From: Vulcanimicrobiota bacterium
Lineage (GTDB): Bacteria; Vulcanimicrobiota; Vulcanimicrobiia; Vulcanimicrobiales; Vulcanimicrobiaceae
Assembly (NCBI GenBank): GCA_963820825.1
Contig: CAWGBN010000008.1
Coordinates: 384,001 to 448,000, forward strand
Length of the DNA: 64,000 nucleotides
Direction of reading: 5' to 3'
The notes below the pieces were generated by a model. The model was not told the origin of the DNA. It made no database searches and worked only from the letters and a program-made list of their open reading frames with translations. A program made the translations under genes and the position numbers. This document shows, in pieces, positions 15,162-59,910 of the stretch (the stretch's first letter is position 1; each line of letters begins with the position of its first letter).

Positions 15162-15263
15162 ACTTTTGAGTACGCCCTTTCAACGACACCGTATCGCGCA
15201 AATGTGAATGCCCTAGGAAAGTACCTTCGCGAGATATTCTTCTTCGTGGTGTCAGGTTAGCGC

Positions 15264-17735
15264 ATGGACCCCGGTGCGGCTTCGCCGGAAGAATGCCGGT
15301 ACAAGGGGCTTTCGTCAGCCGAAGCTTCTCTATTACTGCAGCGCTACGGCCGCAACGATCTCACTCCCGCGCGAAAGTCCGGAGAGCTCCTCACCTGGAT
15401 CTTGCGTCTGATCGCCGATCCGATGGTCATTCTGCTCGCGATCGCGGGTGCCACGTACATCGCGTTCGGCGACCGCTTCGACGCGACCGTCGTCGGCATC
15501 GCGCTTCTTCCCATTTTTGCCGTAACCGGCATCCTCGAGTTTCGTTCAGACCGGACGCTCGAACGCTTGAAGACCTCGGCCCCACCGCGAGCACGAGTCG
15601 TTCGCGATCGGATCGAGAGTCAAGTACCGGCGTGGCAAGTCGTGCCCGGCGATATCCTCCTGCTGCGCGAGGGCGACGTTATCGCTGCCGATGGGCATCT
15701 GCTCGAGGCGCGGAGATTGCTCGTCGACGAGTCGGCGCTGACCGGCGAATCGCTCCCCGTCGAGAAGCGCCCCGGCGGCGCCGTAGCCTCGATTTTCGCC
15801 GGCACCGTCGTACGCTCGGGACGCGCCATCGCGATCGTCGAGCGTACCGGTCCGAACACCGAGTACGGCCGCATCGCTCGGGCGCTCGGCGCGCTGCACG
15901 CACAGACGACGCCGATCGAGCGATCCATCCACAGAATCGTGTTTCAGGTCGGTATCGGCGTCGTTTTCGCGTGTGCTCTCGTCGTCGCGGTGCAGCGATG
16001 GCATGGCGATTCCTGGGCCATCGCCGTTATCGCGGGGGTAAGCTTAGCAATGGCGGCAATTCCCGAAGAACTGCCGATGGTCTACACGCTCTATCTCGCG
16101 CTGGGAGCGTGGCGTTTGGCGAAAGATCAGGCGCTCGTGCGTCGTCTCTCCAGCGTGGAGACCCTTGGCTCGACGACGGTCATCTGCGTCGACAAAACCG
16201 GCACGGTTACATATGGGAAGCTCGCCGTTCAATCCGTGATCGCGACGAGGTCGAGCTCCGAAGGCGCCGTACTCATGTCGGCCGCGATGGCGAGCGACGT
16301 CGCCTCGGGCGATCCTGTCGATCTCGCTATTCTGACGGCCTACACGTCGCCGCTCGATGCGGGCGATCGGGAACTCGAGCTTCCGTTCGATCCCGAAACG
16401 CGTTATTCGGCTGCGATCTGGAAGCGCGACTCCGGGAACGTTCTGGTTGCGAAGGGCGCCTTCGAGGCGCTGTTACAAAATTGTCGATGCGACGAAACCG
16501 AGCGGCTCAGTGCCTTTCACGACGCCGAAGCGGCACGGGGCGCACGGATCCTTGCGGTTGCCGAGGGGGTCGTCCAAACGACCAATCTGCCAGAGGCGTG
16601 GAAGAGCGCGCGATTGATCGGCCTGATCGCGCTAGGCGACTCCGTACGACCCGCAGCGGTAGATGCGATCGCCGAGTGCCGCCGCGCGGGCATCCGTTTC
16701 GTCATGATTACCGGCGACCATCCCGCGACGGCACAAGCCGTCGCGGCGGCGGCCGGCCTCGACACCGGCACCATCGTTTCCGGCGAAAGCGAGCTCGCTT
16801 CGTGGAGCGATGCGATGCTAAACGCTAGGATAGCCGAGATCGACGTCTTCGCTCGAGTACGACCGGAGCAGAAGTTACGCATCGTCCGCGCCTTGCACGC
16901 CCACGGCGACGTCGTCGCTATGACGGGCGACGGCACGAATGATGCGCTGGCTCTGCGCGAGGCGGATATCGGCGTCGCGATGGGCGAGAGCGGGACGGAG
17001 GTCGCGCGCGCAGCGTCGGACCTAGTATTGCTCGACGACGACGTAACTACGATCGTCCGAGCCGTCGCCGATGGCCGGCGGATATTTCATAATCTGCAGC
17101 ACGCCTTTACGTATCTCGTCGCGTTCCACGCGCCGCTGCTTCTTAGTGCCTTCCTCCTACCGCTCATCGGCGCGCCGATCTTCCTGCTGCCGATCCATCT
17201 GATTTGGCTCGAGCTGATCGTGCATCCGACCTCGGCGTTAGTCTTCGAGAACGACCCGCCCGAGAAAGATTTGATGCGTGTGCCGCCTCGCCACCCGTCA
17301 TCGGGATTGCTCCAACGTCGCGACTGGCTGCGGACGCTCGCGCTCGGCAGCGTCCTCGCGGCGACGGTCATCGCGCTCTTCGCCCTAGCGCTGCACGCCG
17401 GGCTGAGTTCCGATGCCGCCCGCGCGGCGGGCATCATCGCTATGATGAGCGGGCAAATCGCGCTCGTCTTCGTCGAGCGCGCGGGAGGGCGTCCGATCTG
17501 GTGCGTACCCGTGCGCGGCAATCGAGCGATCTTACCGATCGTTCTTGGAACGGCGGTCGTCTTGATTCTCGCCGTCTACTGGGTTCCGATGGCACAGGCG
17601 CTGCATCTAGAGGCTCTATCGCCCGTGCTTGCGTTGACTGCCGCCGCGGCTGGATGCGCGTCGGTGCTTTGGCTGCAGCCGCTGAGCGTTCTCGGCCGCC
17701 GGGCTAGAGATTGCGAGGGCGAGGCGTCGCCTTGA
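15264..17735 (+). CDS. Cation-translocating P-type ATPase (type II, CtpF-like)
   Basis: TGES, PEEL, DKTGT, KGA, MITGD, TGDGTNDALAL motifs; about 10 TM segments. Confidence 0.95.
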   Translation: MDPGAASPEECRYKGLSSAEASLLLQRYGRNDLTPARKSGELLTWILRLIADPMVILLAIAGATYIAFGDRFDATVVGIALLPIFAVTGILEFRSDRTLERLKTSAPPRARVVRDRIESQVPAWQVVPGDILLLREGDVIAADGHLLEARRLLVDESALTGESLPVEKRPGGAVASIFAGTVVRSGRAIAIVERTGPNTEYGRIARALGALHAQTTPIERSIHRIVFQVGIGVVFACALVVAVQRWHGDSWAIAVIAGVSLAMAAIPEELPMVYTLYLALGAWRLAKDQALVRRLSSVETLGSTTVICVDKTGTVTYGKLAVQSVIATRSSSEGAVLMSAAMASDVASGDPVDLAILTAYTSPLDAGDRELELPFDPETRYSAAIWKRDSGNVLVAKGAFEALLQNCRCDETERLSAFHDAEAARGARILAVAEGVVQTTNLPEAWKSARLIGLIALGDSVRPAAVDAIAECRRAGIRFVMITGDHPATAQAVAAAAGLDTGTIVSGESELASWSDAMLNARIAEIDVFARVRPEQKLRIVRALHAHGDVVAMTGDGTNDALALREADIGVAMGESGTEVARAASDLVLLDDDVTTIVRAVADGRRIFHNLQHAFTYLVAFHAPLLLSAFLLPLIGAPIFLLPIHLIWLELIVHPTSALVFENDPPEKDLMRVPPRHPSSGLLQRRDWLRTLALGSVLAATVIALFALALHAGLSSDAARAAGIIAMMSGQIALVFVERAGGRPIWCVPVRGNRAILPIVLGTAVVLILAVYWVPMAQALHLEALSPVLALTAAAAGCASVLWLQPLSVLGRRARDCEGEASP

Positions 17736-17739
17736 CGAG

Positions 17740-17960
17740 TTAGACGGTTGCATTCAATGCCTCAAGGCTTTGCATCATTTGCATCACTGGAAGCCTTGAC
17801 GCGCGACTGATTCCTTCAGCGACGCGCCGAGGAGCACTCGGCTTACTGCGGACCGCCCATGCGTCCCGACCACGATGACGCCCGACTCTAGGTCGCGCGC
17901 TGCATCTACGATCGCATCTGGAAGGCTTTCTTGAACGACGTACGTGCCGACGTTGGCGGC
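17740..17960 (-). pseudogene. Universal stress protein remnant
   Basis: DAIVDAARDLESGVIVVGTHGRSAVSRVLLG then frameshift into ...SRASRLPVM; no N-terminus. Confidence 0.65.
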
Positions 17961-18170
17961 CCCTGGCCCGAATTTTCGCTTTCGCGGCGTGAACCAGGAC
18001 CCTGGCAAGTCGCAAGAGATCGCGAACAATACTCTCACCCCCTTCCGAACGGACGGTTCAGATGCCGGCGCCCCAAGTGCGCGCAAAGCCTCCGGCCCGA
18101 TCCGTGATTGAGCGAGTGGGCACTATTGACTGCGGCCGGTAGCGCCCGGGCCCCGCCATCCCGATCCGCC

Positions 18171-18450
18171 CTATTTGCGCCGCTTCTCGCGCGCATCGGT
18201 CACCAGCTTCATTGTCGTATTGGTTAGTGTGCGTTCGTAGATACGGCGGCCGACTTCAATTGCTGAGACGACATTCGATAATCCAGGCTCGGTGAAAACG
18301 GCGCCGGCGGCCGCCTTTGCGATCGGTGGCGTTAGCGACGGCAATCCCGATGTTGGCTTGCCGGAGCGCCGGAGCATCGTTGATGCCGTCACCGGTCATC
18401 CCGACGACGTGCCGAGCGGCTCGAAGCGTTCGGATGATCGACAACTTGGT
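18171..18450 (-). pseudogene. P-type ATPase fragment (hinge region, H+-ATPase-like)
   Basis: [29 protein letters not shown] / [30 protein letters not shown] in two frames. Confidence 0.8.
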
Positions 18451-18489
18451 TTTCCGGATAAATCCGAGGTATGGACCTCTTCCGGCGGG

Positions 18490-18600
18490 ATTCCGACGGC
18501 TTGGGCCCCCACGTAGAGCGAACTCTTCTCGGAAGCATGTGTGAGGGTATCCTTCACCGCGCGGAGATACCGGTTTTCGCCGTGCACCAACGAGTCGGCG
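18490..18600 (+). pseudogene. Universal stress protein C-terminal remnant
   Basis: [21 protein letters not shown]. Confidence 0.55.
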
Positions 18601-18601
18601 C

Positions 18602-19081
18602 CTACGGCGGAGGAATCGATGGCCTCGAGCCGGGGTTCAGAACGTTCGGCAGCGCTGAGACGCCCGCGCTCTGAGTGATCGCCTCCGCGTCCCGCGCGAG
18701 AGCATTGGCCAGTTCGTCCTTTGCCGGACACGTCAAATCCGGTGATTCCCAGCCCTGCCATGCGACCTTCAGCGACGCGCCGAAAGAAACCGTCTTCATA
18801 CATGGTACAGTGGTGGCGTTGCCGTGACGTGCAGCCGCCAAGTCCGTAAAGAATTTCGTCGCTATCGTTACGGGGATACGGAGCGGTTTGGGGCTCCCTG
18901 CGATGCGCCCATCGAGTGTTTGTAGCATCACCGAGCCATCGCCGTCCGACCATATCTGGATTATGTAGCCGTTTACATTGGTTGATCCGGAGTTGTCGAT
19001 GACGGCGAAATCGTCAGGTGCGGCCCCGACGCAGCCAAGAAGTACACTCGCAGCGAGAAGAGCCTTTAGGTAACGCATCAC
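18602..19081 (-). CDS. Secreted/lipoprotein hypothetical protein
   Basis: Signal peptide (VLLGC); [27 protein letters not shown]. Confidence 0.7.
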
Positions 19082-19092
19082 TTTTCTCCTAA

Positions 19093-19932
19093 CTAAACCG
19101 ACATTCGTTCGCGCCTAAGCTCTACGACGCCCCGAGACTGCGGGCCGCGTGCTGCCTTCGCAACGCAGTGATCTCCGTGGTAAAGTTCAAATTCCAGGGT
19201 TTGAGTGGCCGCAGTAATTTCCTCAAGCACCTGGCCCAAACGTGGATTCCATTGAGCCCTGATCCAATCATGGTACGAGCGAAAATGAATGAGCATCGCG
19301 ATTCGGCGATTGTCACGGCTTCCAAGTAGCTGTGCGTCAACGAAACCGCGAATCTCAGCGCCGGGTCCGCTCCAGAACTCGACGAGGTCTCGATAGAGAC
19401 GTTCGTAATCTCTGGGCGCGACCTCCAGCACGCGCAACACAAAAATGGGCGCCGCCCGTTGGAACCGAGGTAGTACCGTTTTCGAAGATCCTATTTTTGT
19501 TTTCTCGCGTACGATAACGACCGGGCACGCCGCCGAGCGTAGAATCGTCTCGGCGACACTGCCCATAAAGAGACGCTTAAATCCCGACTGTCCGTGGCTT
19601 CCCATCACGATGCTGTCCGCGCCGATGCTCGAAGCTCGAGCGACAATCCTCCCGGCGGGGCGGCCCACCGCCACGGAGCCGGTTGCGTCGACGCCGGCGC
19701 GCTTGGCCTGTTTGAGCGCTTTATCGACTAGGCGCTTAGCGCTCGTCCTTGCTGAGACAATGCGTGGCTTTTCGCCCAGCAATGCCGTCGTGTGCCCGAG
19801 AATCGCCTCGACATCGACGATCGACCAAATCTCTAATCGCGCACGCTGAGCCTTGGCTAGTCGAAGCGCGTAGCGGAACGCGTACTCCGACGAGCGCGAT
19901 CCGTCGATCGGTACGAGGATGGTCTTCCTCAT
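19093..19932 (-). CDS. Universal stress protein fused to a C-terminal ABM-like (dimeric alpha-beta barrel) domain
   Basis: USP motifs ILVPIDGS, GSHGQSGFKRLFMGSVAE; C-terminal GFVDAQLLGSRDNRRIAMLIHFRSYHDW pattern resembles ABM domains. Confidence 0.8.
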   Translation of the reverse strand: MRKTILVPIDGSRSSEYAFRYALRLAKAQRARLEIWSIVDVEAILGHTTALLGEKPRIVSARTSAKRLVDKALKQAKRAGVDATGSVAVGRPAGRIVARASSIGADSIVMGSHGQSGFKRLFMGSVAETILRSAACPVVIVREKTKIGSSKTVLPRFQRAAPIFVLRVLEVAPRDYERLYRDLVEFWSGPGAEIRGFVDAQLLGSRDNRRIAMLIHFRSYHDWIRAQWNPRLGQVLEEITAATQTLEFELYHGDHCVAKAARGPQSRGVVELRRERMSV

Positions 19933-20112
19933 ACTTGCATGTTACTAGTAGGACAGGAAGAACCGGTGAAGCTCAGTTCTCAGGTTCTTCGTGCGGTTTT
20001 CCGTGTTAGCGCCGAGCTACGGCGGCCCTGGTGCCTGCGCAATTCGAGCGCGCGATCCGAAACCGCTCTCATCGACGCTCCAGGCTCGGGCTGCGGTCGA
20101 TGCCAGCGTCAT

Positions 20113-20433
20113 CTACCCTAGTGGTCCCGGCGGTGTACCCTTTATCTGGCCTCTCACATGGATAATTCCAATCCCGTGAAACTTGCAGCGCCGGAAGGTT
20201 ACATTCTTACAACCGATGACTCCAATCAGCGCCCGATCGCTCTGCACCTCTATAAACAGTTGGTCCGCTGTGCCTCCAAGGTCGCTGTACTCTAACGTCA
20301 GACTTTCCAATCCAAATATGAGTGCCGGGCCGAATATATGACAATCCTCAAATACTTTATCCTTTATCACGTAATCTGCTGAAAAAATCATATCCACTAG
20401 CCGAATAATCTTCCTGGAAAAGTAGGTTTCCAA
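20113..20433 (-). CDS. Hypothetical protein (low GC), possibly partial
   Basis: Open frame with protein-like composition in an AT-richer segment; TTG start uncertain. Confidence 0.45.
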   Translation of the reverse strand: METYFSRKIIRLVDMIFSADYVIKDKVFEDCHIFGPALIFGLESLTLEYSDLGGTADQLFIEVQSDRALIGVIGCKNVTFRRCKFHGIGIIHVRGQIKGTPPGPLG

Positions 20434-20491
20434 AGGGTTTATCTGTTGCGGACTAGGGTATCCCCGGTTCGACGACGTTTATCAGTTCATC

Positions 20492-21172
20492 GTGATGCAT
20501 CTTATCGATCTGAGGTCCACGAAGTCCGAACTTGAAACGCTATGGGGGTTGCACGTTGCGAGAGTCGCAACTGGTGACGCTGCTTACTTCGAAAAGGCTA
20601 TTCACGTCAACGAGCCCATTGACCATCCCCTAAATAAACACATTCGAACCTTAATCTTGGACGCGGCTCGCCTCGTTAAGAGAATGCAAGAACTAACGCG
20701 AGTTCTTGGAATAGACATTGGCTTTCTGTTCCAAGACTCACGCGCTTTTGAGCGAGGCTTGAAACAGCTTAACGAAAGCGACTCGGCCCTTGCGATTTAT
20801 TTACGAGACAGTCGCCCATGGCTAGAGGCCTTACAACGTGCGCGCGTCGCTCGCGAGCGTGAGACGTTTGTTATGCCGCGACTCCGTTACGAAGTCACAG
20901 CTGGTAGAAGTGTTAGAGTCGTCGAGCCCATGTTCCAGCATCTACCTCTTATCGAGTTTTTCACCAAACTACTCAGCGACGTAACTAAGTTTGTCGAGGA
21001 TATAACCATCTGGTGCATGGCGCAAAGTCTTCCGGGCAGCGTGATGGTCGCTGAAATCCGAAGAGCAGACCGAGACCCCAGTAAGCCAGAACGGTTCAAA
21101 ATGTCCGTCGGAGGCTTCGGCGATGAGCGCTGGATAATTCGCTACTCGGAAAGAGCCTTCGAGGATGTATAG
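20492..21172 (+). CDS. Hypothetical helical protein, possibly N-terminally truncated
   Basis: 226-aa ORF with lower GC than its neighbours and no recognised motif. Confidence 0.55.
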   Translation: MMHLIDLRSTKSELETLWGLHVARVATGDAAYFEKAIHVNEPIDHPLNKHIRTLILDAARLVKRMQELTRVLGIDIGFLFQDSRAFERGLKQLNESDSALAIYLRDSRPWLEALQRARVARERETFVMPRLRYEVTAGRSVRVVEPMFQHLPLIEFFTKLLSDVTKFVEDITIWCMAQSLPGSVMVAEIRRADRDPSKPERFKMSVGGFGDERWIIRYSERAFEDV

Positions 21173-21216
21173 TGGTTCGTTCTAAGCCGCGGGGCGCTTG
21201 GAGGCGCGTTACCTAA

Positions 21217-21471
21217 CTTGGTACCCTGCAACGTCGGGATGTAGCAGAACGCAATCGCAGTTGGGCGCGCGAGCACCCGGGCCCGCGCGACGAGGCGTGG
21301 TTCAAGCGCGAGATCGCGCAGAAACTCGACGCGTTCTCGCTCAAGGAGATCGCGGGAGCGACGGGGTTATCGCTCGCGGCCTGCTCGCGCATTCGGGCCG
21401 GAACGCGCGTCCCGCATCCCAGGCATTGGGAGAGCTTGCTCGCACTGGTCGAGGCTGGAAATGAGGCGTAG
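21217..21471 (+). pseudogene. HTH fragment resembling the C-terminus of solo Cas1 (casposase) proteins
   Basis: Startless frame RRDVAERNRSWAREHPGPRDEAWFKREIAQKLDAFSLKEIAGATGLSLAACSRIRAGTRVPHPRHWESLLALVEAGNEA*; in-frame stop at 21214-21216. Confidence 0.6.
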
Positions 21472-24279: not shown

Positions 24280-25134
24280 CTAACAACGCAGTCGATCGGC
24301 AAAGCGGCGAAGCAGTGGATTGTACCGCATCGCTGAGATCGCTGGAAAATAGAGCGCGGTCCGTAGGCTGGCATTGCCGGTCTTGGCGATGCGGCTCGGC
24401 CAGCGAATCGACCAGGACTCGTGATGGCGGGGAGAAAGACCGGCATACGCGGCGACGGCCTTGACGTTGCGAAACTCTGCAATGTTGGGCATCTCACCCA
24501 AGATACGAGCTGCGGTCGTCTCGCCGATTCCCGGAATCGACGTCAGCAGCTCGCGCTGTCGGCGCAGTGGCGGATAGCGGTCGAAGAGTTGTTGGATTTC
24601 ATGCTCAACCCGGTCGATTTCACGATCCAGATGAGCTAGCGTCGCTTCAATCGACGCCTGAACGACCGAGGCGATCATGGGCGCTTGGAGCCGATTCTGC
24701 TCCTCCGTCCGCATCTGGACCAGGCTCTGATACCGACGAACTAAGCCTTGTAGGGCACGGATTTCCGGCGCGGGCGGCGTCCACGGGTCTGGCGCGTGCG
24801 TGCGACAAAACCGCGCAATGAGTGCTGCGTCGATGCGGTCAGTTTTTGTCCGCAGCATCTCGCTCTTAGCAAATGCTTTGATGCGCATAGGATTAACCAG
24901 GCTGACGACATGGCCAATCTCGTGTAGTGCGAGCGCCAGATCCTCGCTCCACCCGCCAGTGGCCTCAAGACACGCGTGCACCCTGTCAACTTTGCGATTG
25001 CACAACCAGGTCTGCAACTGCTTGAAACCGACTGCCGAATTGGCGACGCTCTTGGATGTTGAGCGATCATCCTGCAGCAAAACCGCGTGCATCTCGTGCT
25101 TTCCGACGTCGATGCCTAAGATCTCCACGCTCAC
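24280..25134 (-). pseudogene. IS110 transposase/recombinase, C-terminally truncated
   Basis: LGIDVGK, LEATG, KTDRIDA, SIPGIG, YAGLSP..ES; ends at FADRLRC* before the usual GK...RKL tail. Confidence 0.9.
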
Positions 25135-31563: not shown

Positions 31564-31634
31564 AGCGTAGAGCCGGCCTGAGAATTAGTCGGGAATGCGA
31601 CGTTCACCACATCTTCTCGACGCTGCCCTACAGT
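31564..31634. promoter_or_regulatory. Back-to-back TTCNC-N6-TTCNC-N10-TANNNT promoters
   Basis: Plus: TTCAC 31603, TTCTC 31614, TACAGT 31629, ATG 31641. Minus: TTCCC, TTCTC, TACGCT at 31564-31569. Confidence 0.75.
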
Positions 31635-39394: not shown

Positions 39395-39464
39395 ACTCTA
39401 CGGGGCTCCTGCGAAAGTAATGCGAAGAGAAGCTCATCGGTTCTTCACAGGAGAGGCATAGGGT
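39395..39464. promoter_or_regulatory. Back-to-back direct-repeat promoters (BON gene / HPF gene)
   Basis: Minus: TTCGC-N6-TTCGC-N10-TAGAGT-N6-ATG. Plus: CTCAT-N6-TTCAC-N10-TAGGGT-N7-ATG. Confidence 0.75.
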
Positions 39465-43635: not shown

Positions 43636-43746
43636 ATTGTACGGCCCGATTGAGAAACGCTGCGGAAATTCGTTCTTCTAAAGTCGGGGAATCGGGAAGA
43701 ACTTGGGAACCAACTTCACCACGCTTTCCACCTTTCGCGTTAGGCT
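43636..43746. promoter_or_regulatory. Divergent direct-repeat promoters
   Basis: Minus: TTCCG-N6-TTCTC-N10-TACAAT (43636-43667). Plus: TTCAC 43715, TTCCA 43726, TAGGCT 43741, ATG 43753. Confidence 0.75.
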
Positions 43747-47553: not shown

Positions 47554-48009
47554 CTACGCCGCTTTTCTCTGCGCGGGCGGGTTTCGAACGATCAGTACGG
47601 GCACGCTCGACTCGCGCATGACGACTTCGGCGACGCTGCCCATGAGAAAATGCTGAAATCCGCGCCGGCCGTGCGTACCCATGACGATGAGGTCGGCACC
47701 GAGCCGTTCGGCATATTTGAGGAGCTCGAAGGCGGGTACGCCGGTGCGAATCTGCCCGGTGGCGGTGACGCCTTCCCGACAGGCCCGCTCGATCGCCTCG
47801 GTGACGGTCCGCCGCGCCGCAATCTCCATGTCGCGAACCACGATATCCATCGCCGGGCTCGGCGGAGAGGTGGCCGTGATCGCGATCGGATCGACGACGG
47901 AGCAGATGCCCAGCTCGGCCTTTTGGGCCTGCGCTAATCCCAGGGCAACCGAGAACGCCTTGGAGGCGGCTTCGGATCCGTCGAGCGCGACTGCAATCTT
48001 AGTGAACAT
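47554..48009 (-). CDS. Universal stress protein
   Basis: KIAVALDGS; GTHGRRGFQHFLMGSVAE. Confidence 0.93.
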   Translation of the reverse strand: MFTKIAVALDGSEAASKAFSVALGLAQAQKAELGICSVVDPIAITATSPPSPAMDIVVRDMEIAARRTVTEAIERACREGVTATGQIRTGVPAFELLKYAERLGADLIVMGTHGRRGFQHFLMGSVAEVVMRESSVPVLIVRNPPAQRKAA

Positions 48010-48015: not shown

Positions 48016-48107
48016 AGCCTACGCTCGACTCTAGAATTCGTCGTGAATTTTGAGGCCCCGGCTCTTCACAATCGCTTCACGGGAGCGTAACCGGAAACGG
48101 CTATTAT
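48016..48107. promoter_or_regulatory. Divergent direct-repeat promoters (USP / efflux operon)
   Basis: Minus: TTCAC-N6-TTCTA-N10-TAGGCT-N6-ATG. Plus: TTCAC-N6-TTCAC-N6-GTAAC-N10-TATTAT-N6-GTG. Confidence 0.7.
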
Positions 48108-51448: not shown

Positions 51449-51489
51449 GCCGAATTGAGAAAAACTCGTGAAGCTTCTCCTATCCAGCG

Positions 51490-51521
51490 TTCACGGAGAA
51501 TTCCCGACGCTCTCGTAGGCT
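51490..51521 (+). promoter_or_regulatory. Direct-repeat promoter of tandem USP
   Basis: TTCAC-N6-TTCCC-N10-TAGGCT-N6-ATG. Confidence 0.75.
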
Positions 51522-51527
51522 AGAGTC

Positions 51528-52451
51528 ATGTTCACAAAGCTTTTGGTCGCCCTCGACGGCTCCCCGTGCGCCGAGCGCGCTTTCGAACTCGCGATGCGGC
51601 TCGCAAAGCTCGAAGGATCGAGACTCATTCTCTGCTCGGTCGCCGACCCGGCGCCGGTTTACGGCAGTCTCCAGCCCAACACCCTCATCGAGCATACGCT
51701 CGAGGAGATCCACCAGGAAGCCGAGCGCGTCGCCGGCGATGCCGCCGTTCGAGCGAAGGCCGCGGGCATCGTTGCCGAGGCGTGCGTCTTCGAAGGCGAA
51801 CCCGTCCATCAGATCGTTTCGCACGCCGCTGCGGCGCCGGTTGACGGAATCGTCATCGGCACGCACGGCCGCTCCGGATTCGCTCGCCTCTTTATGGGAA
51901 GCGTCGCCGAAGGCGTGCTCCGGGATGCGACGGTGCCGGTGATCGTCGTGCGGGCGGAGGCGAGCCTTGCGCCGCTTGCGCCCGACGCGACCTTCATCAC
52001 CCGAGTTCTCGTGCCTGTCGATGGCTCGGAGAACTCCCTGCGCGCAATCGACGTCGCCGTCGAGCTCGCCGCGAGCGCCGGCGCGGAAGTCGTCGTCGGT
52101 CACGCGATCAATCTCGGCGAGGCCGCGATGCTTAGCGGCGGTGAGGCGCAACTTCTGGCCGGCTGCCTAGAACTCGTCAAGGAGAAGGGCCAACACGTCC
52201 TCGCTGAAGCGCTCGCGCGCATCGGCAACCGCGTCCCCGCATCGTCTCAGATCGGCGAGGGCGAGCCGGTCGAGGCCATCGCGCAGCTCGTCGCGGAAGT
52301 CAAGCCGGAGTTCGTCGTCTGCGGAAGTCACGGACGCACGGGCTTGAACCGCGCGTTCATGGGCAGCGTCGCCGAGAGCGTGCTGCGCCACGCGCCGGTT
52401 CCCGTGATCGTCGTTCCGGCGAAGAGTATTAATAGTGTATCAGCGGCTTGA
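51528..52451 (+). CDS. Tandem-domain universal stress protein
   Basis: Two DGS...G(T/S)HGR...MGSVAE units. Confidence 0.93.
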   Translation: MFTKLLVALDGSPCAERAFELAMRLAKLEGSRLILCSVADPAPVYGSLQPNTLIEHTLEEIHQEAERVAGDAAVRAKAAGIVAEACVFEGEPVHQIVSHAAAAPVDGIVIGTHGRSGFARLFMGSVAEGVLRDATVPVIVVRAEASLAPLAPDATFITRVLVPVDGSENSLRAIDVAVELAASAGAEVVVGHAINLGEAAMLSGGEAQLLAGCLELVKEKGQHVLAEALARIGNRVPASSQIGEGEPVEAIAQLVAEVKPEFVVCGSHGRTGLNRAFMGSVAESVLRHAPVPVIVVPAKSINSVSAA

Positions 52452-53040
52452 GAAATCGTCTCACCACGAGGACGACGACTGCGCCGCCAACCGCCGCGTA
52501 GAAAGCGAGCGCTGCATGCGCGCCCAGCGCCAAATACGTTCCAATCGCGAGGCCGAAAACTACTGCGATCGCGATGCTCGTCAACTGGTCGATTCCCCAG
52601 CGAATCTCGTCCGCCGGCAATTCGGCACGACGAACGACCAACCCAACAAGCAACATCGCACCGGCCAACGTGTAGACGATCGCCAATGAGAAGACGCACA
52701 TGCTCAGAAGGTGAGCTGGATTCTGGCCCAGTTCCGCGACGCGCACGGTGCTTTCAAAGAAAAATAGCGTCAGGATGAGCGTGCAGAGCATTCCAAAGTT
52801 CATCAGGATCATCGGTGCTTTAGGCACGAAGAACGAGCTAAACGTTCGGTGATGAAGCCACCAGAGCACCGCGATAAAGATAAATGCCGATATGAAGAAC
52901 GTGATGCTTTCCCAAAGGCCGAACATATCGGTTGCGTTCTTCGGCAGCACGAGATTTAGACCGAGTTGCGCGAGGCAGAATCCGATAACGATGTCGGAAA
53001 AGGCTTCGAGCCGGTGGGTGGTGTGCTGCGAACCGGTCAT
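52429..53040 (-). CDS. TMEM175-family potassium channel
   Basis: RLEAFSD N-terminal motif; WWLHH; about 6 TM segments. Confidence 0.85.
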   Translation of the reverse strand: MTGSQHTTHRLEAFSDIVIGFCLAQLGLNLVLPKNATDMFGLWESITFFISAFIFIAVLWWLHHRTFSSFFVPKAPMILMNFGMLCTLILTLFFFESTVRVAELGQNPAHLLSMCVFSLAIVYTLAGAMLLVGLVVRRAELPADEIRWGIDQLTSIAIAVVFGLAIGTYLALGAHAALAFYAAVGGAVVVLVVRRFLKPLIHY

Positions 53041-53063
53041 GGAGGGCGGTCGCTGTGCGCCGA

Positions 53064-53765
53064 TTACGGGCGGCGGAGTTTGTAGCCGACGCCGTAGACG
53101 GTGACGACGTACGCCGGATTACGGTTGTCGGCTTCGATCTTTTTTCGCAGGTTGTTGATGTGACGGTCGAGCGTCCGTTCGTAGATCGTTCCGGAGTCCT
53201 GCAGACGATCGAGCATTACTGCACGCGTGAAGACTTCGCCGGGGCTGCTCGCCAGCACCGCGAGGATTCGAAACTCGGTTGCGGTGACGTTCGCCGTCCT
53301 TCCGCCGACGCGTATCTCGTGTGAGGCGAGGTCGATCTCCAGGTCGCCGATGCGCACGAGGTTTGCAGCACCAGGCTCCCCAGGCTTGTGCTCCTCGACA
53401 CGCCGCAGCAGCGCGCGAATGCGCGCCATCAACTCGCGCGGCGAGAACGGTTTGGTCATGTAGTCGTCGGCGCCGAGCTCCAGGCCGACGATGCGATCGG
53501 ACTCTTCGCCGCGTGCGGTGAGCATGATCGCCGGGACGCGCCGGCCGCTCGCCGCCGTTTCGCGCAGGACGTCGAGCCCGCTCCCGTCGGGCAAGCCGAC
53601 GTCGAGGATCATCATCTCGGGTTTCGACTCACGAATCAGCGCGAGTCGCCTCGCCACGGTCGTGCAGAGCGTCGTGATGCGAAACCGTCGCGGTCGCAGA
53701 TAGCTCTCGACGACTTCTGCGACTTTCGGCTCGTCCTCGACGACGAGGACGCGCTTGCCGTCCAT
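53064..53765 (-). CDS. OmpR/BaeR-family DNA-binding response regulator
   Basis: LVVEDE, LDVGLPD, GADDYMTKPFSPREL, ERTLDRHINNLRKK, TVYGVGYK; apparent short compensating frameshift near the N-terminus. Confidence 0.92.
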   Translation of the reverse strand: MDGKRVLVVEDEPKVAEVVESYLRPRRFRITTLCTTVARRLALIRESKPEMMILDVGLPDGSGLDVLRETAASGRRVPAIMLTARGEESDRIVGLELGADDYMTKPFSPRELMARIRALLRRVEEHKPGEPGAANLVRIGDLEIDLASHEIRVGGRTANVTATEFRILAVLASSPGEVFTRAVMLDRLQDSGTIYERTLDRHINNLRKKIEADNRNPAYVVTVYGVGYKLRRP

Positions 53766-53770
53766 CGGTC

Positions 53771-55411
53771 TTACCAGGTTCGCATTCCCGGCGCGAGGTA
53801 TCCGGGATGGCGCAGAGTTCGCCGAGCGGCCCGGCGTACGCAAGGATCGCGAGCACGAGCGCGAGCGACGCCCCAGCGATAGAGGCTGCTGCAGCGGCCG
53901 CGGCGTCGTCACGCTCGCACTCGGCGGCGTTGCGAACACCACGTCGGGATCTGCGTCGGTTCTCGGTTCTTGACCAGCGTGCCGATCGCGACGGCGACGA
54001 ACGTACAGCGATGCTCAGGAAGAGGAAGAAACCGCCGGCCGCTGCGAGCAGCATGTACGGTTGCCAGGCGTTGGCCGCCGCGGCGCCCATGTAGTCGACT
54101 TCCGCGGTGCGCCGCGGCGCGCCGAGCAGGCCGGCGTAGTGCATCGAGAACGACATGATCAGCATGCCGAAGAACCAGAGACGCGTCTGAAAGAGCGCCC
54201 ACTCCGGCTTCCAGAGCGCGCGGCCGGTCAGCCGCGGAATCAGCCAGTAGGCGGCACCGAGGAACGTCAGCGCGACCGGGCCGCCGACGGTTACGTGAAA
54301 GTGACCGACGATCCAGATCGTGTTGTGCACGACCGTATCCATGCTGTACGACGCGTTGACCAGACCGCCGAAGCCGCCCAGGATGAAGAGGATCATGCCC
54401 AGCGCCGCACCGCTGAAGGTCGGGTCGTTCCAGGGCAGCGCCTTGACCGTGCCGATGAATCCGCGGCGTCCCTGTTTGATCGCGAAGAGCTCGAACGACG
54501 CGAAGATCGCAAAGGCGGTGATGAACGACGGAATCGCGACGCCGTACGTCGTGATCGTGTGCAGCATCTTCCAAACCGACGAGATGCCCGGCTCCATGAA
54601 CTCGTGATGGATGCCGACCGGCGTCGAGAGCAGGATCAGCATGATGAAGGTCAGCCGCGTCAGCGCGTCGCTAAAGACGTTTCCGCCGTAGCGCGTCGGA
54701 ATGATGTTATACCAAATGATGTAGGCGCCCATGATCCAGAAGTAGACCAGCGGATGGCCGAAGTACCAGAAGAACATCCGCGTCAGCATGACGTTGATGC
54801 CGGAGGTCCAGCCGAAGGCCCACGGGATCAGAAGGACCATCTCGGCGACGACGCCGAGCGTCGCGACGATCCACATGACGAACGTCGCGGCGGCGCAAAA
54901 GACGACGAGCGGAACCGGCTTGCCGGGATTCGTGCTTCCGGAAATAGTTGACGTTGGCGAAGATCTCGAAGGCGACGACCCAGGTGCCCAGCACCAGCAG
55001 CGTCGCGCCGACGTAGAACCACGGACTCGCTTTGAGCGGCGCGTAGAACGTGTAGAGCACGGTCGCGTCGCCCTTGAGGATCGTGACCGCGGCCATCGCG
55101 GTGCCGAGCAGCATGAGCCACCAGCCGAACCATCCGACGGCGAGGCTGCGCGTCGCGCGGTATCGCGCGGTAGGTTACGAAGAGCGATAGCCCGGTGATG
55201 AAGAACGTCGTGAAGACGAGCGCCATCAGCACGCCGTGCATCGTGAGCATGCGATAGTAGTCGAACCAACGCCGGCGCGCCGAAGGCGCCGGTGCGCGAA
55301 AATCCTTGAAAGACGCCGAAGATCGCGCCCGAGCGCGATCGCCGCCGTCGCGGTATAGATGTGCGCGATGATGACGCGGTTCTCGTTGCGAACTGCGTCT
55401 GACCCGGTCAC
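53771..55411 (-). CDS. cbaA: ba3/b(o/a)3-type (family B) heme-copper oxidase subunit I, several frameshifts
   Basis: YYRMLTMHGV, LYTFYAPL, FWYFGHPLVY, PVGIHH, HNTIWIVGHFH, GAPRR. Confidence 0.9.
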
Positions 55412-55881
55412 TTATTTCACCTCGATCTTGGCAAACATGTTCTGATGGCCGAGTCCCGCAGTATTCGTGGCAGAGCAGTAGGTAGTCACCGGCGTGCGTG
55501 AACGTGTGCGTCTCCTCGTTCACCCAGCCGGGAACGACCATCATGTTGATGTCGGTTCGGGAATGAAGAAGCCGTGGACGACGTCCGCGCTCGTGACGTA
55601 GAACGTCACCCTGCTTCCGACCGGAACGTGCAGATCGGCCGGGTCGAATTCGAAGACGCGCGCGACGTAGTAGGCCTCGTACGATCCGTCCGCGCGCCGG
55701 TGCAGCCCGGGCTTGTCGAACGGCGGCGTCTGAGCGACCTTCGTGGGATCGATCTGCTGCATATCCGATGGGCGGATTGATGTTGTCGGCAAAGGCCGCA
55801 AAGGCGATCAACCCTAGGAAAAATGACGAGCATCCCCACGCCGAAGGTCAGCCACCAGCGTTCGTATCGGTGAATCTGCAT
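55412..55881 (-). CDS. cbaB: ba3-type oxidase subunit II (CuA), frameshifts
   Basis: IHRYERWW, TSADVVHGF, CHEYCG..HQNM across frames. Confidence 0.88.
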
Positions 55882-55882
55882 C

Positions 55883-55997
55883 TTACCAGCGCACCCGCAG
55901 CAAGCACGTACATCGCGAACCAGAGAACCAGGAACGTCGCGCCCATTACAAAGACGAAGCGCAGCGTTCCGATGAGGGGAGCTTCTTCGTCTTTCAT
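55883..55997 (-). CDS. cbaD: ba3-type oxidase small subunit IIa (probable frameshift)
   Basis: Single TM helix LIGTLRFVFVMGATFLVLWFAMY directly upstream of subunit II. Confidence 0.65.
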
Positions 55998-56464
55998 GAG
56001 CTCGTCGCACTCGATTTCGACTGCTCGTCGCGCAGGTAGGCCGTTTCGAGCTCGGAAGCGATCCGCTCCAGCAACGCCTGCGCGGTTACGGTTGCGATGC
56101 GACGGCCGATCGTGGCGTCGAAGGCCGCGCCCAGCACGCCGCCCGGGGGACGGTACGATCCCCGGAGCTCGAGCTGCGACGTCTCGTAGTTTTCGTCGGC
56201 GCGCACGGTCAGCTCGCCGTCGAACTCCGGATAGGGTCCCGCTTTCGGCTTCCAGTGCAGCCGCCACGGTTGGTCGAAATGCATCGGATCGTTCGCGGCG
56301 TCGTAGGTAACGACCACCTCGCGCACCAGATCCGCGCCCGGGAGCGCGGCGGTGAGGGTCAGCGTCCCGGGCGCACCGGTGCGAGCGGCGACAGCGCGCG
56401 CGAGATGACGCTGCGCGAGATGGTAGGGGCAGCGGACAATGCGCCGTTCCAGAAGCTCTGACAT
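55994..56464 (-). CDS. Hypothetical protein (START/SRPBCC-like?), first gene of the cba operon
   Basis: W...YPEFDGELTV...LELRGSYRPPGGVLGAAFDATIGRRIA; paralog of 59461-59910. Confidence 0.75.
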   Translation of the reverse strand: MSELLERRIVRCPYHLAQRHLARAVAARTGAPGTLTLTAALPGADLVREVVVTYDAANDPMHFDQPWRLHWKPKAGPYPEFDGELTVRADENYETSQLELRGSYRPPGGVLGAAFDATIGRRIATVTAQALLERIASELETAYLRDEQSKSSATSS

Positions 56465-56470
56465 GGCCTC

Positions 56471-56502
56471 ATCCTAGCCATCACCTGCGAAGAACTATCG
56501 AA
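56471..56502 (-). promoter_or_regulatory. Direct-repeat promoter of the cba operon
   Basis: TTCGA-N6-TTCGC-N10-TAGGAT-N6-ATG. Confidence 0.7.
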
Positions 56503-56547
56503 TGGCGCCTTCCCAACTAATTCACAATTCGCAGGGCCAACCGCGAG

Positions 56548-57246
56548 CTAGGGTCTCTTCATTTTATAGCCGACGCCGTAGACGGTCACGATGTACTCGG
56601 GATTGCGCGGGTCCTTCTCGACCTTCTTGCGCAGGTTGTTGATGTGCCGGTCGAGCGTCCGCTCGTAGATCTCACCGTCGTCGCCGAGGCGGTCGAGCAG
56701 ATGCGAGCGGGTGAAGACCTCCCCCGGATTCTCCGCCAAGAGGGTAACGATCTTGAACTCGGTCGCCGTTAGATTCGCCGGCGCTCCGGCGACGCTGACC
56801 TCGTGAAAGTTGTGGTCGATCTCGAGCTCGCCGATGCGCGTTCGCCGGTTATTCTTGTGGCCGGTGGTCTGCTCTTCGGCCGTTCGGCGCAGGAGCGCGC
56901 GCACGCGCGCCACCACCTCGCGCGGCGAGAACGGCTTGGAGACGTAATCGTCGGCGCCGAGTTCCAAGCCGACGACCCGATCGGCTTCGTCGGAACGCGC
57001 GGTGAGCATGATCGTCGGAACGCGCGCGTTGGGCACCGAGACCGACCGAAGCACGTCGAGCCCGCTGCCGTCGGGCAGCGTGATGTCGAGCACGAGGACG
57101 TCGGGCGTGGAGCGCGCGATCGCCGCCGTCGCTTCGGCGACGTTCCCGCAGACGTCCACGATCATCCCCTCGCGCTCGAGATAGGCCTTGAGTACCTCGG
57201 CAATCTGCGGCTCGTCGTCGACCAGCAGAACCCGGCGTCGCTCCAT
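56548..57246 (-). CDS. OmpR/BaeR-family DNA-binding response regulator (paralog of 53064-53765)
   Basis: LLVDDE, LDITLPD, GADDYVSKPFSPRE, ERTLDRHINNLRKK. Confidence 0.93.
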   Translation of the reverse strand: MERRRVLLVDDEPQIAEVLKAYLEREGMIVDVCGNVAEATAAIARSTPDVLVLDITLPDGSGLDVLRSVSVPNARVPTIMLTARSDEADRVVGLELGADDYVSKPFSPREVVARVRALLRRTAEEQTTGHKNNRRTRIGELEIDHNFHEVSVAGAPANLTATEFKIVTLLAENPGEVFTRSHLLDRLGDDGEIYERTLDRHINNLRKKVEKDPRNPEYIVTVYGVGYKMKRP

Positions 57247-57422
57247 CAGAGCCCGTCCTGCCCCTGCAAGAGGTCGCGGGCTCCGCGCAGCGCGTCGGCG
57301 ACAGCCTCGAGCCGCGCCGGCGTCGGTGCGACCAGACCGTCGGCCATTCCCTCCACGTTGGCCAGAGCGACGGCTAACAGATTGCCGAGCTCGTGGCGAA
57401 CCGTCTCGCGACCCTCCTTCAT
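57246..57422 (-). CDS. 58-aa stand-alone histidine-kinase DHp (HisKA) domain protein
   Basis: MKEGRETVRHELGNLLAVALANVEGMADGLVAPTPARLEAVADALRGARDLLQGQDGL*; H-box RHEL; TGATG overlap with the regulator; absent from the ORF track. Confidence 0.75.
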   Translation of the reverse strand: MKEGRETVRHELGNLLAVALANVEGMADGLVAPTPARLEAVADALRGARDLLQGQDGL

Positions 57423-57505
57423 TCTTTATTGGTAATCCGAGATTGGGCGGCTCGGGCCCTATCGAAACGGAGCCGCCAGCGGCAGAGCGAAGACCCGAGA
57501 AGTTC

Positions 57506-58651
57506 ATGGATGAGTCACTCTTTTCGCTCCGGGATATTGCGGGGAGCAGGTTCCCGCTGCTCGAGCACGCTCCGGACGCGACGATCATCGTCGACGGCGA
57601 GGGGATCATCCAGCTGGTCAACGCGCAGACCGAGCGGCTCTTCGGCTACTATCGCGAGGAGCTCATCGGCCAGGCCATCGAGATGCTCATCCCCAAGCGG
57701 TTCCACTCCCGGCACGTCGTGGAGCGAAAGGAGTACGCGTCCGAGCCGCGCGTCCGGCCGATGGGCGTCGGCCTCGAGCTCTTCGGCCTGCGCAAGGACG
57801 GCAGCGAGTTCCCGGTCGAGATCAGCTTGAGTCCGATCGCCACGCGCGAGGGGACCTTTATCGCCGGCGCGATTCGCGACGTGACCGAGCGCAAGGCGTT
57901 CGAAGCGCGCCTGCAGAGCCTCAATGCAGAGCTCGAGAAGGCGAGTCGCGCAAAAGACCAGTTCCTCGCCTCGATGAGCCACGAGCTGCGTACGCCGCTC
58001 AACGCCATTCTCGGCTTCACCGGAACCCTGCTCATGAAACTTCCGGGACCCCTCAACGAAGAGCAGGAGCGTCAGCTTCAAATCGTTCAATGGAGCGCCC
58101 GCCATCTGCTCTCGCTGATCAACGATATTCTCGATTTGGCCAAGGTGCAATCGGGAAAGCGCGAGCTTACCTACGAGCGAGTTCCGGTCAAAGAGGTGGT
58201 GGGAGACGTTGCCGCCTCGCTGGCATCGCTGGCCGAAGAGAAGGGTCTTGCATTCTCCCATGCCGTTGCGCCCAGCGCGGAGTTCGTTACGACCGACCGC
58301 CGCAGTCTGCGTCAGATCCTGCTGAACCTTACGCAGAATGCGATCAAGTTTACGGAACGCGGCGTCGTGCGAATCGACGTCAGCGCCGTCACGCGCAATG
58401 GGAGCGCGCGGCTCGCCATGAGCGTGATCGACACCGGCATCGGTATCAAGGGTGAGGACCTCGCACGCCTCTTCGAAGCCTTCGAACAGCTCGCCACGTC
58501 GAACGAGCGGCGTTTCGAAGGTACGGGGCTCGGACTTCATCTCTCGCGCACCCTCGCCGAACTTCTCGAGGGCGAGTTAACCGTTGCGAGCGAGCACGGG
58601 AAGGGGAGCACGTTTACGCTGACCTTGCCCCTGGCCGGCGCCGAGGGATAA
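57506..58651 (+). CDS. Cytoplasmic PAS-domain sensor histidine kinase
   Basis: FixL-like PAS (APDATIIVD...RKDGSEFPVEISLS); SHELRTPLN; N, G1, F and G2 boxes. Confidence 0.93.
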   Translation: MDESLFSLRDIAGSRFPLLEHAPDATIIVDGEGIIQLVNAQTERLFGYYREELIGQAIEMLIPKRFHSRHVVERKEYASEPRVRPMGVGLELFGLRKDGSEFPVEISLSPIATREGTFIAGAIRDVTERKAFEARLQSLNAELEKASRAKDQFLASMSHELRTPLNAILGFTGTLLMKLPGPLNEEQERQLQIVQWSARHLLSLINDILDLAKVQSGKRELTYERVPVKEVVGDVAASLASLAEEKGLAFSHAVAPSAEFVTTDRRSLRQILLNLTQNAIKFTERGVVRIDVSAVTRNGSARLAMSVIDTGIGIKGEDLARLFEAFEQLATSNERRFEGTGLGLHLSRTLAELLEGELTVASEHGKGSTFTLTLPLAGAEG

Positions 58652-59023
58652 GTGGTGCGAATCCTCGTTATCGACGACAATCCTGCGAATCTCGACCTGA
58701 TGCTCTACCTGCTGCGTGCTTTCGGCCACGAGGTCGAAGCGGCCGCCGACGGTCTCGCCGGATACGAAGCGCTCCAGCGCGATGGCTACGACCTCGTGTT
58801 GACCGATATTCTCATGCCGGGGATCGACGGTTATGAATTCGTGCGCCGCGTGAAGAGCGACGCTCGCTTCGCGTCGACGCCGGTCGTCGCGGTAACGGCG
58901 TTGGCGATGGACGCCGATCGCGCGCGAGTCGGTGCAGCCGGCTTCGACGGCTATATCACCAAGCCGATCGACCCCCAGCACTTCGTCGGCGAAATCGAGT
59001 CCTTTTTGGCGGGCCGCTTCTAG
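58652..59023 (+). CDS. Single-domain response regulator (DivK-like)
   Basis: LVIDD, TDILMP, VTALAM, GFDGYITKP. Confidence 0.92.
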   Translation: MVRILVIDDNPANLDLMLYLLRAFGHEVEAAADGLAGYEALQRDGYDLVLTDILMPGIDGYEFVRRVKSDARFASTPVVAVTALAMDADRARVGAAGFDGYITKPIDPQHFVGEIESFLAGRF

Positions 59024-59029
59024 CGACCG

Positions 59030-59398
59030 ATGGCGACCGTGCTCGTTGCCGACGACGATCGCCACACGCGCTTTCTCGTCAAGACCGTCCTCACGCACGT
59101 CGGGCACACCGTGATCGAGGCCGCCGACGGCGCCGACGCACTCACGCGTGCCCGCACCGAGACGCCCGACCTGATCCTGCTCGATCTTTCGATGCCGGGG
59201 ATGAGCGGCCCCGAATTTATCCGCGCGCTCCGCGCCGATCCGCGCACGCAGCCGACCAAAGTCGCCCTCTACACCGCGACGCCGTTGAACGCCGCGCTTC
59301 GCGATTTCATGGAGATCTACGGAATCGAACACGTCGTGCCCAAACCGGCCGAGCCCGCGCAACTGATCGAGGCAATAGAACGCGCCCTCTCCGGGTAA
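59030..59398 (+). CDS. Single-domain response regulator
   Basis: LVADDD, LDLSMP, KP. Confidence 0.9.
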   Translation: MATVLVADDDRHTRFLVKTVLTHVGHTVIEAADGADALTRARTETPDLILLDLSMPGMSGPEFIRALRADPRTQPTKVALYTATPLNAALRDFMEIYGIEHVVPKPAEPAQLIEAIERALSG

Positions 59399-59422
59399 AC
59401 AAAGAAGTGATGGGAACGCACG

Positions 59423-59454
59423 TTCGCCGGTTCTTCTCATTAAATTGGTAGATT
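59423..59454 (+). promoter_or_regulatory. Direct-repeat promoter
   Basis: TTCGC-N6-TTCTC-N10-TAGATT-N6-ATG. Confidence 0.75.
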
Positions 59455-59460
59455 GATCGC

Positions 59461-59910
59461 ATGCCGCGGTTAAGTGATAGGACCGCGATCGATTGTTCCG
59501 TGGAGCAAGCGTCGAAGGGGATCGATTGCTTTTTAGATTCGCTCAAAGGGAGAGACGGAGTCGCGCGTCTTCGCCTGCGCGTTCCCGCCGACGGACCGAT
59601 GCTCGGTATCGCGATCGACCGAGAGGTTCGGATCGAGGTGCGTCCGCCATCTGAGGTCGGCGGGGCTATGGCGATGGGTTGGAAGCCCGAGGGAACGGTC
59701 GCTCTTCCAACGTTCGAGGGGACGCTCGTTGCACAGAGCGACGGAGATCCGAATGTAACGTACCTCGACCTCGACGGCTCCTACACGCCGCCTTTCGGCG
59801 CGGCGGGACAACTCTTCGACGCGGCCATCGGCAAACGCATCGCGCAAGCGACGGCGCGCGAGTTTCTCAAAGACCTCAAGGCCGCAATCGAAAAATCCCT
59901 GTCATCCTGA
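59461..59910 (+). CDS. Hypothetical protein, paralog of 55994-56464
   Basis: W...LPTFEGTL...LDLDGSYTPPFGAAGQLFDAAIGKRIA. Confidence 0.75.
   Translation: MPRLSDRTAIDCSVEQASKGIDCFLDSLKGRDGVARLRLRVPADGPMLGIAIDREVRIEVRPPSEVGGAMAMGWKPEGTVALPTFEGTLVAQSDGDPNVTYLDLDGSYTPPFGAAGQLFDAAIGKRIAQATAREFLKDLKAAIEKSLSS

Follow-up and report, generated by a model that had tools for sequence, protein, structure and literature searches.

The mycobacterial DosR regulon is controlled by a NarL-type regulator with GAF-haem sensors. Its palindromic box, GGGACTTNNGNCCCT, and the TGA-N6-TCA Anr/Fnr-like motif of the lxa locus of Burkholderia cenocepacia serve gene sets that include several universal stress proteins (USPs), a small heat-shock protein, a PfkB-type kinase, a cation ATPase and a phospholipid-binding/BON protein (PMC3721108, PMC6448022). 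In Rhizobium etli, a FixL-type oxygen sensor, the hybrid kinase hFixL, feeds the OmpR-type regulator FxkR, which binds the direct repeat GTTACA-N4-GTTACA to control microoxic genes and works mainly via fixKf (PMC4999443, PMC7769827), and Myxococcus xanthus drives an oxygen-utilisation regulon through NmpRSTU, a multi-component oxygen-responsive phosphorelay with an NtrC-type regulator, sigma-54 promoters and a GCGCA-N5-TGCGC box (PMC11841059). Relays such as Pak-SdrG-PhyT-PhyR and MrrA-PhyK-PhyR, like those of Spo0B and ChpT, pass from a kinase to a single receiver, then to a kinase-derived histidine protein and on to an output regulator (PMC5898713, PMC5964349). Here we describe a comparable arrangement in a Vulcanimicrobiota genome, from a phylum whose single cultured representative can grow at oxygen levels between 1 and 20% (PMC9758169). 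In the window, that is the whole 64,000-nt stretch analysed (GenBank assembly GCA_963820825.1, contig CAWGBN010000008.1, positions 384,001 to 448,000), a promoter box made of TTC half-sites is likely read by an OmpR-type response regulator, RR1, encoded beside a predicted haem-PAS kinase, two single-domain receivers and a 58-aa DHp-only protein, and may govern a low-oxygen or dormancy gene set (Table 1).

The window contains 12 strict matches to TTC-N8-TTC-N12-TANNNT, whereas 100 dinucleotide shuffles of the same DNA gave a mean of 0.12 and a maximum of 2, and none reached 12; the shuffled control that a first-pass annotation of this DNA had named as a way to refute the regulon left the motif far commoner in the real sequence. 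Among 100 combinations of the two spacings, only 8/12 was enriched, both in the window (12 matches, 0-3 for the others) and in the 2.98-Mb genome (35 matches, 2-13 for the others), and the box is kept at orthologous promoters of relatives though the spacers have diverged. Direct re-checking recovered all 13 sites listed by that annotation, with their coordinates and geometry; 11 of its 12 regular sites are strict matches, the site at 39433 having CTC in its first half-site. Two sites absent from its list were added, a strict match at 13216 (+) and a site at 15226 (+) whose degenerate -10 (TCAGGT) stands exactly 6 nt ahead of the P-type ATPase start.

The box had been described as two half-sites, and this geometry held, but its size did not: a second, inverted pair lies upstream of most sites, giving GAA-N8-GAA-N5-9-TTC-N8-TTC, a box of four half-sites. 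Allowing at most one mismatch, the inverted pair was found at 11 of the 13 listed sites, with a gap of 5-7 nt at eight and 17 nt at three, and not at 43636 or 59423. Exact GAA-N8-GAA stands 5-8 nt upstream in 44 of 72 distinct two-site promoters drawn from the window and the genus island loci; at the same promoters, control periods of 9, 10, 12, 13 and 14 gave 0-2 and a period of 8 gave 13, the latter probably due to the common GAAGAA. At 56471 the inverted pair is conserved without a divergent gene, the upstream neighbour being the end of RR1, so that the back-to-back promoters can be seen as a symmetric box with a -10 for each half. In loci L151, L153 and L154 of family f2, promoters have three direct half-sites, not inverted pairs.

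A direct repeat of 11-nt period that takes the place of a -35 and stops about 10 nt short of the -10 is the arrangement of OmpR/PhoB-type activators, as had been proposed in the first pass. In pho-box promoters, too, the box and the -10 are 10 bp apart (PMC1906773); bound PhoP dimers displace the sigma -35 contact on boxes of this kind, which overlap the -35 position (PMC11825685). Other promoter elements were tried and rejected: a sigma-70 -35 element, neither half-site being 17 nt from the -10; a Crp/Fnr palindrome, the centre spacing between the inverted pairs being variable (5-9 or 17 nt) and therefore unsuited to a single palindrome-binding dimer; and the pho box, the pstS promoter of this genome having TTAA repeats and no TTC-N8-TTC. 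This pstS promoter (G000:C5, upstream of 192379) carries TTAAC/TTAAT repeats reminiscent of the cyanobacterial SphR box CTTAACCT (PMC1906773).

Most boxed promoters lie close to their genes. The ten start codons reported 6-7 nt past the -10 correspond to nine of the 12 regular sites (19939, 31603, 39395, 39433, 43715, 48016, 51490, 56471 and 59423) and to the 48065 variant; the sites at 15188, 31564 and 43636 are leadered. Across the 72 promoters, the ATG stands exactly 6 nt past the -10 in 47, and from this spacing alone we infer that such mRNAs are leaderless. A crude genome-wide count, which found TANNNT 6-7 nt before an early ATG in 64 of 2380 called genes (38 genes at 6 nt, against a background of about 18), suggests that leaderless starts are uncommon in this genome, and was kept out of the main arguments because the gene caller is rough.

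Two OmpR-type genes had been put forward as the regulator, of which the upstream neighbour of the oxidase operon, RR1, is favoured here, and RR2, behind the oxidase genes, is not. They are sister paralogues inside a class-wide clade (support 98 in a quick tree) whose members, in each of the three families sampled, are neighbours of USP, oxidase and related genes. The best named match of RR1 belongs to a Candidatus Eremiobacteraeota metagenome-assembled genome (71% identity), and named close homologues are mostly from Ca. Cybelea, a genus of Vulcanimicrobiota (Eremiobacterota); going by these names, the source organism is probably Ca. Cybelea or something close to it. Intact RR1 is present in 17 of 37 genus genomes; of these, 16 have the four-site box, as do 2 of the remaining 20. 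The box follows RR1, and RR2, listed in only 5 of the 37, was rejected as main regulator. In a draw of 251 genomes of the family, in which clade membership was called at E 1e-58 or better, the four-site box was found in 89 and the regulator clade in 170 (both in 86, box only in 3, regulator only in 84, neither in 78), that is in 86/170 genomes with the clade and 3/81 without it; a reversed-pattern control gave 1 match. Both tallies count related, not independent, genomes, and up to 11 unpublished genomes entered as rows. RR1, which combines a receiver with a Trans_reg_C domain, is thus of the regulator class expected at such promoters and both linked to the box and co-occurring with it, and the box is likely its binding site.

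By itself the two-site geometry is not specific: genomes lacking RR1 have it with TTCAT or TTCAG half-sites, for instance ahead of phosphoesterase genes, and such variants make up six of the 35 strict two-site matches of this genome. A second box family of the same geometry, TTCA[GCT]-n2-TTTY-TTCA, stands before high-potential iron-sulfur protein (HiPIP) and secreted-protein genes, and a TTCAT-N6-TTCAT type before phosphoesterases (G000:C8:2650, 5185, 5195; C7:14339, 114460; C6:649573; L168-L170); these variants are probably other OmpR-family regulons.

The first-pass account had no sensor side, overlooking the FixL-like PAS kinase, the two receivers and the DHp-only protein. The kinase is soluble, divergently transcribed from RR1, and its PAS domain best matches FixL and DosP. 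A histidine aligned in this domain, which we take to be the haem ligand of FixL, is kept in at least 90% of 19 orthologue rows. The same histidine is the main determinant of haem binding in its PAS cluster (PMC10468136), and the kinase is predicted to be a haem-PAS oxygen sensor. Within the genus its distribution matches that of intact RR1 (all 17 genomes with it, none of the 20 without), and it adjoins RR1 in 14 of 16 other genus loci. As the kinase ends at 58651 and the receivers are separate open reading frames (ORFs), this is not a hybrid kinase with a fused receiver. Receivers of the DivK/PleD type, to which receiver 1 comes closest, are the usual partners of kinases with such a DHp. Between the diverging DHp-only and PAS kinase genes, the promoter stretch (57423-57505; also L082-L096) has no TTC box and shows, by eye, recurring TAGG and GGATTA elements about 16-20 nt apart, perhaps the mark of another sigma factor.

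Between the PAS kinase and RR1 lies the DHp-only gene, detected by pattern in 14 of 18 genus loci and by tblastn in two more, and found by neither in G031 and G024. The His, Glu+1 and Asn+4 positions are invariant in 14 rows. This protein has no NCBIfam family; 237 database proteins of 29-116 aa match it, and nearly all of the 120 matches listed are unnamed or hypothetical. It aligns with the DHp part of a BaeS-like kinase that other lineages encode right behind the regulator and, judging by this alignment, is the relic of RR1's ancestral kinase, namely its histidine-bearing half. Like proteins of the Spo0B/ChpT/PhyT type, it has a DHp with a conserved histidine and no working ATP-binding domain, and a candidate kinase and single receiver for such a pathway are present by synteny and co-occurrence. 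At locus L218 it stays beside the PAS kinase though RR1 lies 6 kb away. A complex prediction of the DHp-only dimer with receiver 1 scored 0.00, which has no bearing either way.

The ancestral-type kinase, of which complete copies occur for instance at L206:2227-3030, L160:10866-11615 and L151:8463-9293, has no recognisable sensor domain. Four cysteines of its catalytic half are invariant in all 10 complete copies aligned and are decaying in three copies with a damaged ATP-binding region; a built-in Fe-S or metal redox sensor is possible. The 170 regulator-bearing genomes comprise 55 with the complete ancestral kinase alone, 78 with the PAS kinase alone, 2 with both and 35 with neither detected, a tally that leaves out eight weak multi-domain PAS hits (52, 81, 5 and 32 with them); by genus, the 56 genera divide into 28 with the full kinase only, 18 with the PAS kinase only, 3 with both and 7 with neither. 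The catalytic domain is partly lost in 19 genomes, 12 of which have the PAS kinase. This near mutual exclusion suggests that the regulator swapped kinases, keeping the docking half of its own, with the haem-PAS kinase now a putative phosphate source in a four-step relay. The f2 loci L151, L153 and L154 carry three tandem regulator copies, and the partner kinase behind each copy has decayed to a different degree.

Within the window, the box stands before four USP genes and genes for a P-type ATPase, a PfkB-type kinase, phosphoenolpyruvate (PEP) synthase, a BON protein, a zinc alcohol dehydrogenase (ADH), a hemerythrin, an HPF/S30AE protein, a phosphoribosyltransferase (PRTase), an Erythro_esteras-family protein, a DUF4010 protein, an RND adaptor/ABC exporter and two paralogues without assigned function. 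Elsewhere in the genome or in relatives' islands it precedes genes for Hsp20, a dienelactone-hydrolase-like protein, malic enzyme, a cupredoxin, phosphoketolase, phosphate acyltransferase, a PNPOx-family protein and a CxxCH porin. The DosR-like gene set claimed in the first pass is indeed there (USPs, Hsp20, PfkB, cation ATPase), and the target set shares genes with the DosR regulon and the low-oxygen lxa locus (PMC3721108). The operon behind the 56471 promoter includes the oxidase genes, whose subunit I, in the intact copy of genome G294, matches the Thermus ba3 oxidase with E 8e-113; ba3-type oxidases are associated with microaerobic adaptation (PMC8509429). Many frameshifts occur in the oxidase genes (window 52500-56000); RR2 apparently contains a compensated frameshift, and pstS is broken at G000:C5:191462-192379. 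The frameshifts at 53-56 kb reflect either assembly error or decay, the oxidase genes of G294 being intact. The proteins encoded at 55994 and 59461 drew no family from Pfam or NCBIfam; the former matches Vulcanimicrobiota hypotheticals in Atlas, with a weak SRPBCC lead. Together with G000:C8:652149 and 658136, they belong to a Vulcanimicrobiota protein family of which each island has several paralogues, almost all of them behind a box. The island also holds IS3-family and IS110-family transposase pieces and a USP fragment (7951-8592, 24280-25134, 17784-18086).

We consider it an even proposition that the box is read by RR1, that its targets form a low-oxygen/dormancy set and that a predicted haem-PAS kinase controls it via a receiver and the DHp-only protein. 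The individual steps would be of unequal firmness. With considerable confidence, phosphorylated RR1 would bind as a head-to-tail dimer to the pair ending 10 nt before the -10, replacing the -35 contact, and a second dimer on the inverted pair would help or drive the opposite gene; nearly as confidently, transcription would mostly begin at the start codon. Somewhat less firmly, the PAS kinase would sense low oxygen or some other haem ligand as the signal, and the odds lean only slightly towards phosphate reaching RR1 via the histidine of the DHp-only protein, most likely from kinase to receiver to DHp to RR1. More tentatively, the free-standing 58-residue hairpin could be the phosphotransferase of an oxygen-sensing four-step relay, derived from a sensor-less four-cysteine (possibly Fe-S) kinase whose catalytic half disappeared and whose remainder came under a haem-PAS kinase, with intermediates visible in one family, and acting on a mostly leaderless dormancy regulon via two inverted OmpR dimer sites.

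Several rival explanations share part of this evidence. That the pattern, with merely nine bases specified, arose by chance or as a by-product of promoter base composition is hardly credible given the shuffles, the one enriched spacing of 100 and the orthologous promoters that keep the box. It is quite improbable, too, that another factor reads it, be it RR2, another OmpR-family protein such as a phosphate regulator, or a Crp/Fnr or NarL protein: the genome does encode several further OmpR-family regulators, two Crp-type and twelve GerE domains score over cut-off, RR2 shares the recognition helix of RR1 and boxes of the same geometry (TTCAT/TTCAG) occur where RR1 is missing, yet the box tracks RR1 rather than the sparsely distributed RR2, pstS is without it, and so are 78 of the 81 family genomes lacking the regulator clade. 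A regulon driven by RR1 but answering to general energy, redox or stationary-phase stress, or to the availability of an external electron donor, would suit HPF, the USPs, Hsp20 and the phosphoesterases, as well as the cupredoxin and the CxxCH porin outside the window, and haem binding by the PAS domain is only predicted and the ancestral kinase has no PAS domain; the conserved histidine of the FixL-like PAS, the ba3-type oxidase operon under the box (PMC8509429) and the overlap with the low-oxygen lxa locus nevertheless make this alternative rather improbable.

The wiring leaves more room, and a different one under the same box, regulator and low-oxygen signal, though unlikely, is a serious competitor. 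The PAS kinase might phosphorylate RR1 directly or lend its catalytic domain to the DHp-only protein, or the latter might be a phosphatase or inhibitor of RR1, the receivers being sinks or FixT-like brakes. The H-E-x-x-N motif retains a kinase-type Glu and a phosphatase-type Asn (PMC3510030), the single receiver FixT inhibits FixL and relays no phosphate (PMC7078487), and G031 apparently has no small gene at this place. On the other side stand the likeness of receiver 1 to DivK and PleD, the BaeS-like ancestral partner of RR1 as source of the DHp-only protein, and the L218 arrangement, all of which favour the relay through the DHp-only histidine.

A number of observations weigh against the proposed reading. 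Related genomes are not independent samples, and shared occurrence does not distinguish RR1 from other genes travelling with the island. Of the 170 family genomes that have the regulator clade, 84 lack a strict four-site match. Family f3 is more distant, and there the 12 loci around the regulator yielded 2 matches to the strict two-site pattern, so the box differs. Genomes G008 (95% complete) and G020 (68%) are without RR1, yet each has a four-site box before genes boxed elsewhere, and in G024 and G003 RR1 is broken or partial and there is no box. About 160 nt separate RR1 and the kinase in G031, without a detected DHp-only gene, and counting the eight weaker PAS hits lifts the genomes with both kinases from 2 to 5. 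An Asn at this DHp position is needed for phosphatase activity (PMC3510030), so the DHp-only protein, which keeps it, may remove rather than deliver phosphate. Several boxed genes, such as those for phosphoesterases and secreted proteins, have no evident oxygen link. The island copies of phosphoketolase and the PNPOx-family protein are boxed in relatives, but no box lies within 260 nt of their distant homologues in this genome, and a prediction test found none in 12 upstream regions (phosphoketolase, PNPOx family, USP, second porin and eight other OmpR-family genes).

Table 1. Boxes, regulatory genes and associated features, in window coordinates.
Feature	Position	Strand	Remarks
Two-site box and -10 before phosphoesterase gene	13216..13247	+	Without upstream inverted pair; membership uncertain
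Back-to-back four-half-site box	15188..15257	both	Minus promoter 15188-15219, USP 14733-15161; plus promoter 15226-15257, P-type ATPase 15264-17735
Four-half-site box and -10	19939..19990	-	ATG 6 nt behind; tandem USP 19093-19932; other strand without matching -10
Back-to-back box	31564..31634	both	pfkB-family kinase (minus, leadered); PEP synthase (plus, ATG 31641)
Back-to-back box	39395..39464	both	Minus: BON protein, zinc ADH, hemerythrin; plus: HPF/S30AE protein
Two-site box and -10, leadered protein without assigned function	43636..43667	-	
Four-half-site box and -10	43696..43746	+	Followed by genes for a protein without assigned function, PRTase, Erythro_esteras-family protein and DUF4010
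Back-to-back pairs 17 nt apart	48016..48107	both	USP 47554-48009 (minus); RND adaptor/ABC exporter (plus, -10 one helical turn further)
Box with inverted pair 17 nt upstream	51459..51521	+	Before tandem USP 51528-52451
RR2, OmpR-family paralogue behind oxidase genes	53064..53765	-	60% identical to RR1, same recognition helix
ba3-type oxidase genes (small subunit, II, I)	53766..55997 (approximate bounds)	-	Frameshifted in this assembly, intact in G294
Vulcanimicrobiota-type protein, first gene of oxidase operon	55994..56464	-	SRPBCC-like fold a weak lead
Four-half-site box and -10 for oxidase operon	56471..56523	-	
RR1, OmpR-family response regulator (receiver and Trans_reg_C)	56548..57246	-	Proposed activator
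DHp-only protein, 58 aa	57246..57422	-	H-E-x-x-N motif; stop codon overlaps RR1 start
Soluble histidine kinase with FixL-like PAS domain	57506..58651	+	Haem-ligand histidine position kept
Single-domain receiver 1	58652..59023	+	Best PDB matches PleD, DivK
Single-domain receiver 2	59030..59398	+	
Two-site box and -10	59423..59454	+	ATG 59461 (paralogue of 55994-56464 protein)

Compared with the systems described above, an OmpR-type regulator under a haem-PAS kinase is not new in principle, hFixL-FxkR being the precedent. Unlike in that pair, the receivers are encoded by separate genes, a DHp-only protein is added and a TTC-based four-half-site box stands directly on effector genes; in place of GTTACA-N4-GTTACA before a fixK-type gene the motif is a different one, and none of its 35 genome sites lies near the two Crp-type genes. 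The gene content recalls DosR and lxa, but the linked regulator is OmpR-type rather than NarL-type and the shared motif differs from the DosR box, a consensus that was itself not scanned for, and the variable centre spacing of the inverted pairs departs from a TGA-N6-TCA palindrome at fixed spacing. NmpRSTU shares the oxygen-responsive, multi-component design and differs in its regulator class, promoters and box. With PhoB/PhoP promoters the locus has in common the 11-nt direct repeat 10 nt before the -10, but the half-site differs, the extra dimer site is inverted where PhoP uses tandem dimers, and pstS is no target (PMC1906773, PMC11825685). The proposed order of transfer is that of PhyT, PhyK, Spo0B and ChpT; PhyT, however, retains a degenerate ATPase domain and a membrane anchor (PMC5898713, PMC5964349), whereas the protein found here is a bare 58-aa DHp hairpin, and intermediate stages of catalytic-domain loss survive in relatives.

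New here is the conserved 58-aa DHp-only protein beside a FixL-like PAS kinase and two single receivers. Literature searches on Eremiobacterota, Vulcanimicrobi- and Cybelea, and on DHp-only transferases, which did not cover subscription papers, listed no account of this regulon or of such a protein. An almost uncultured, widespread soil phylum thereby gains a concrete, testable low-oxygen regulon with candidate regulator, box, targets and sensor, in which OmpR would be a further regulator class acting directly on a gene set run elsewhere by DosR, Anr/Fnr-like and NtrC-type regulators. Should the DHp-only protein relay phosphate, it would represent a minimal natural phosphotransferase and a captured example of a phosphorelay evolving from a two-component pair; as all parts are small and soluble, the relay can be tested in vitro or in E. 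coli. The system resembles hFixL-FxkR on its input side and DosR, lxa and NmpR on its output side, yet belongs to none of them, being set apart by its box, its separate receivers and its class of regulator.

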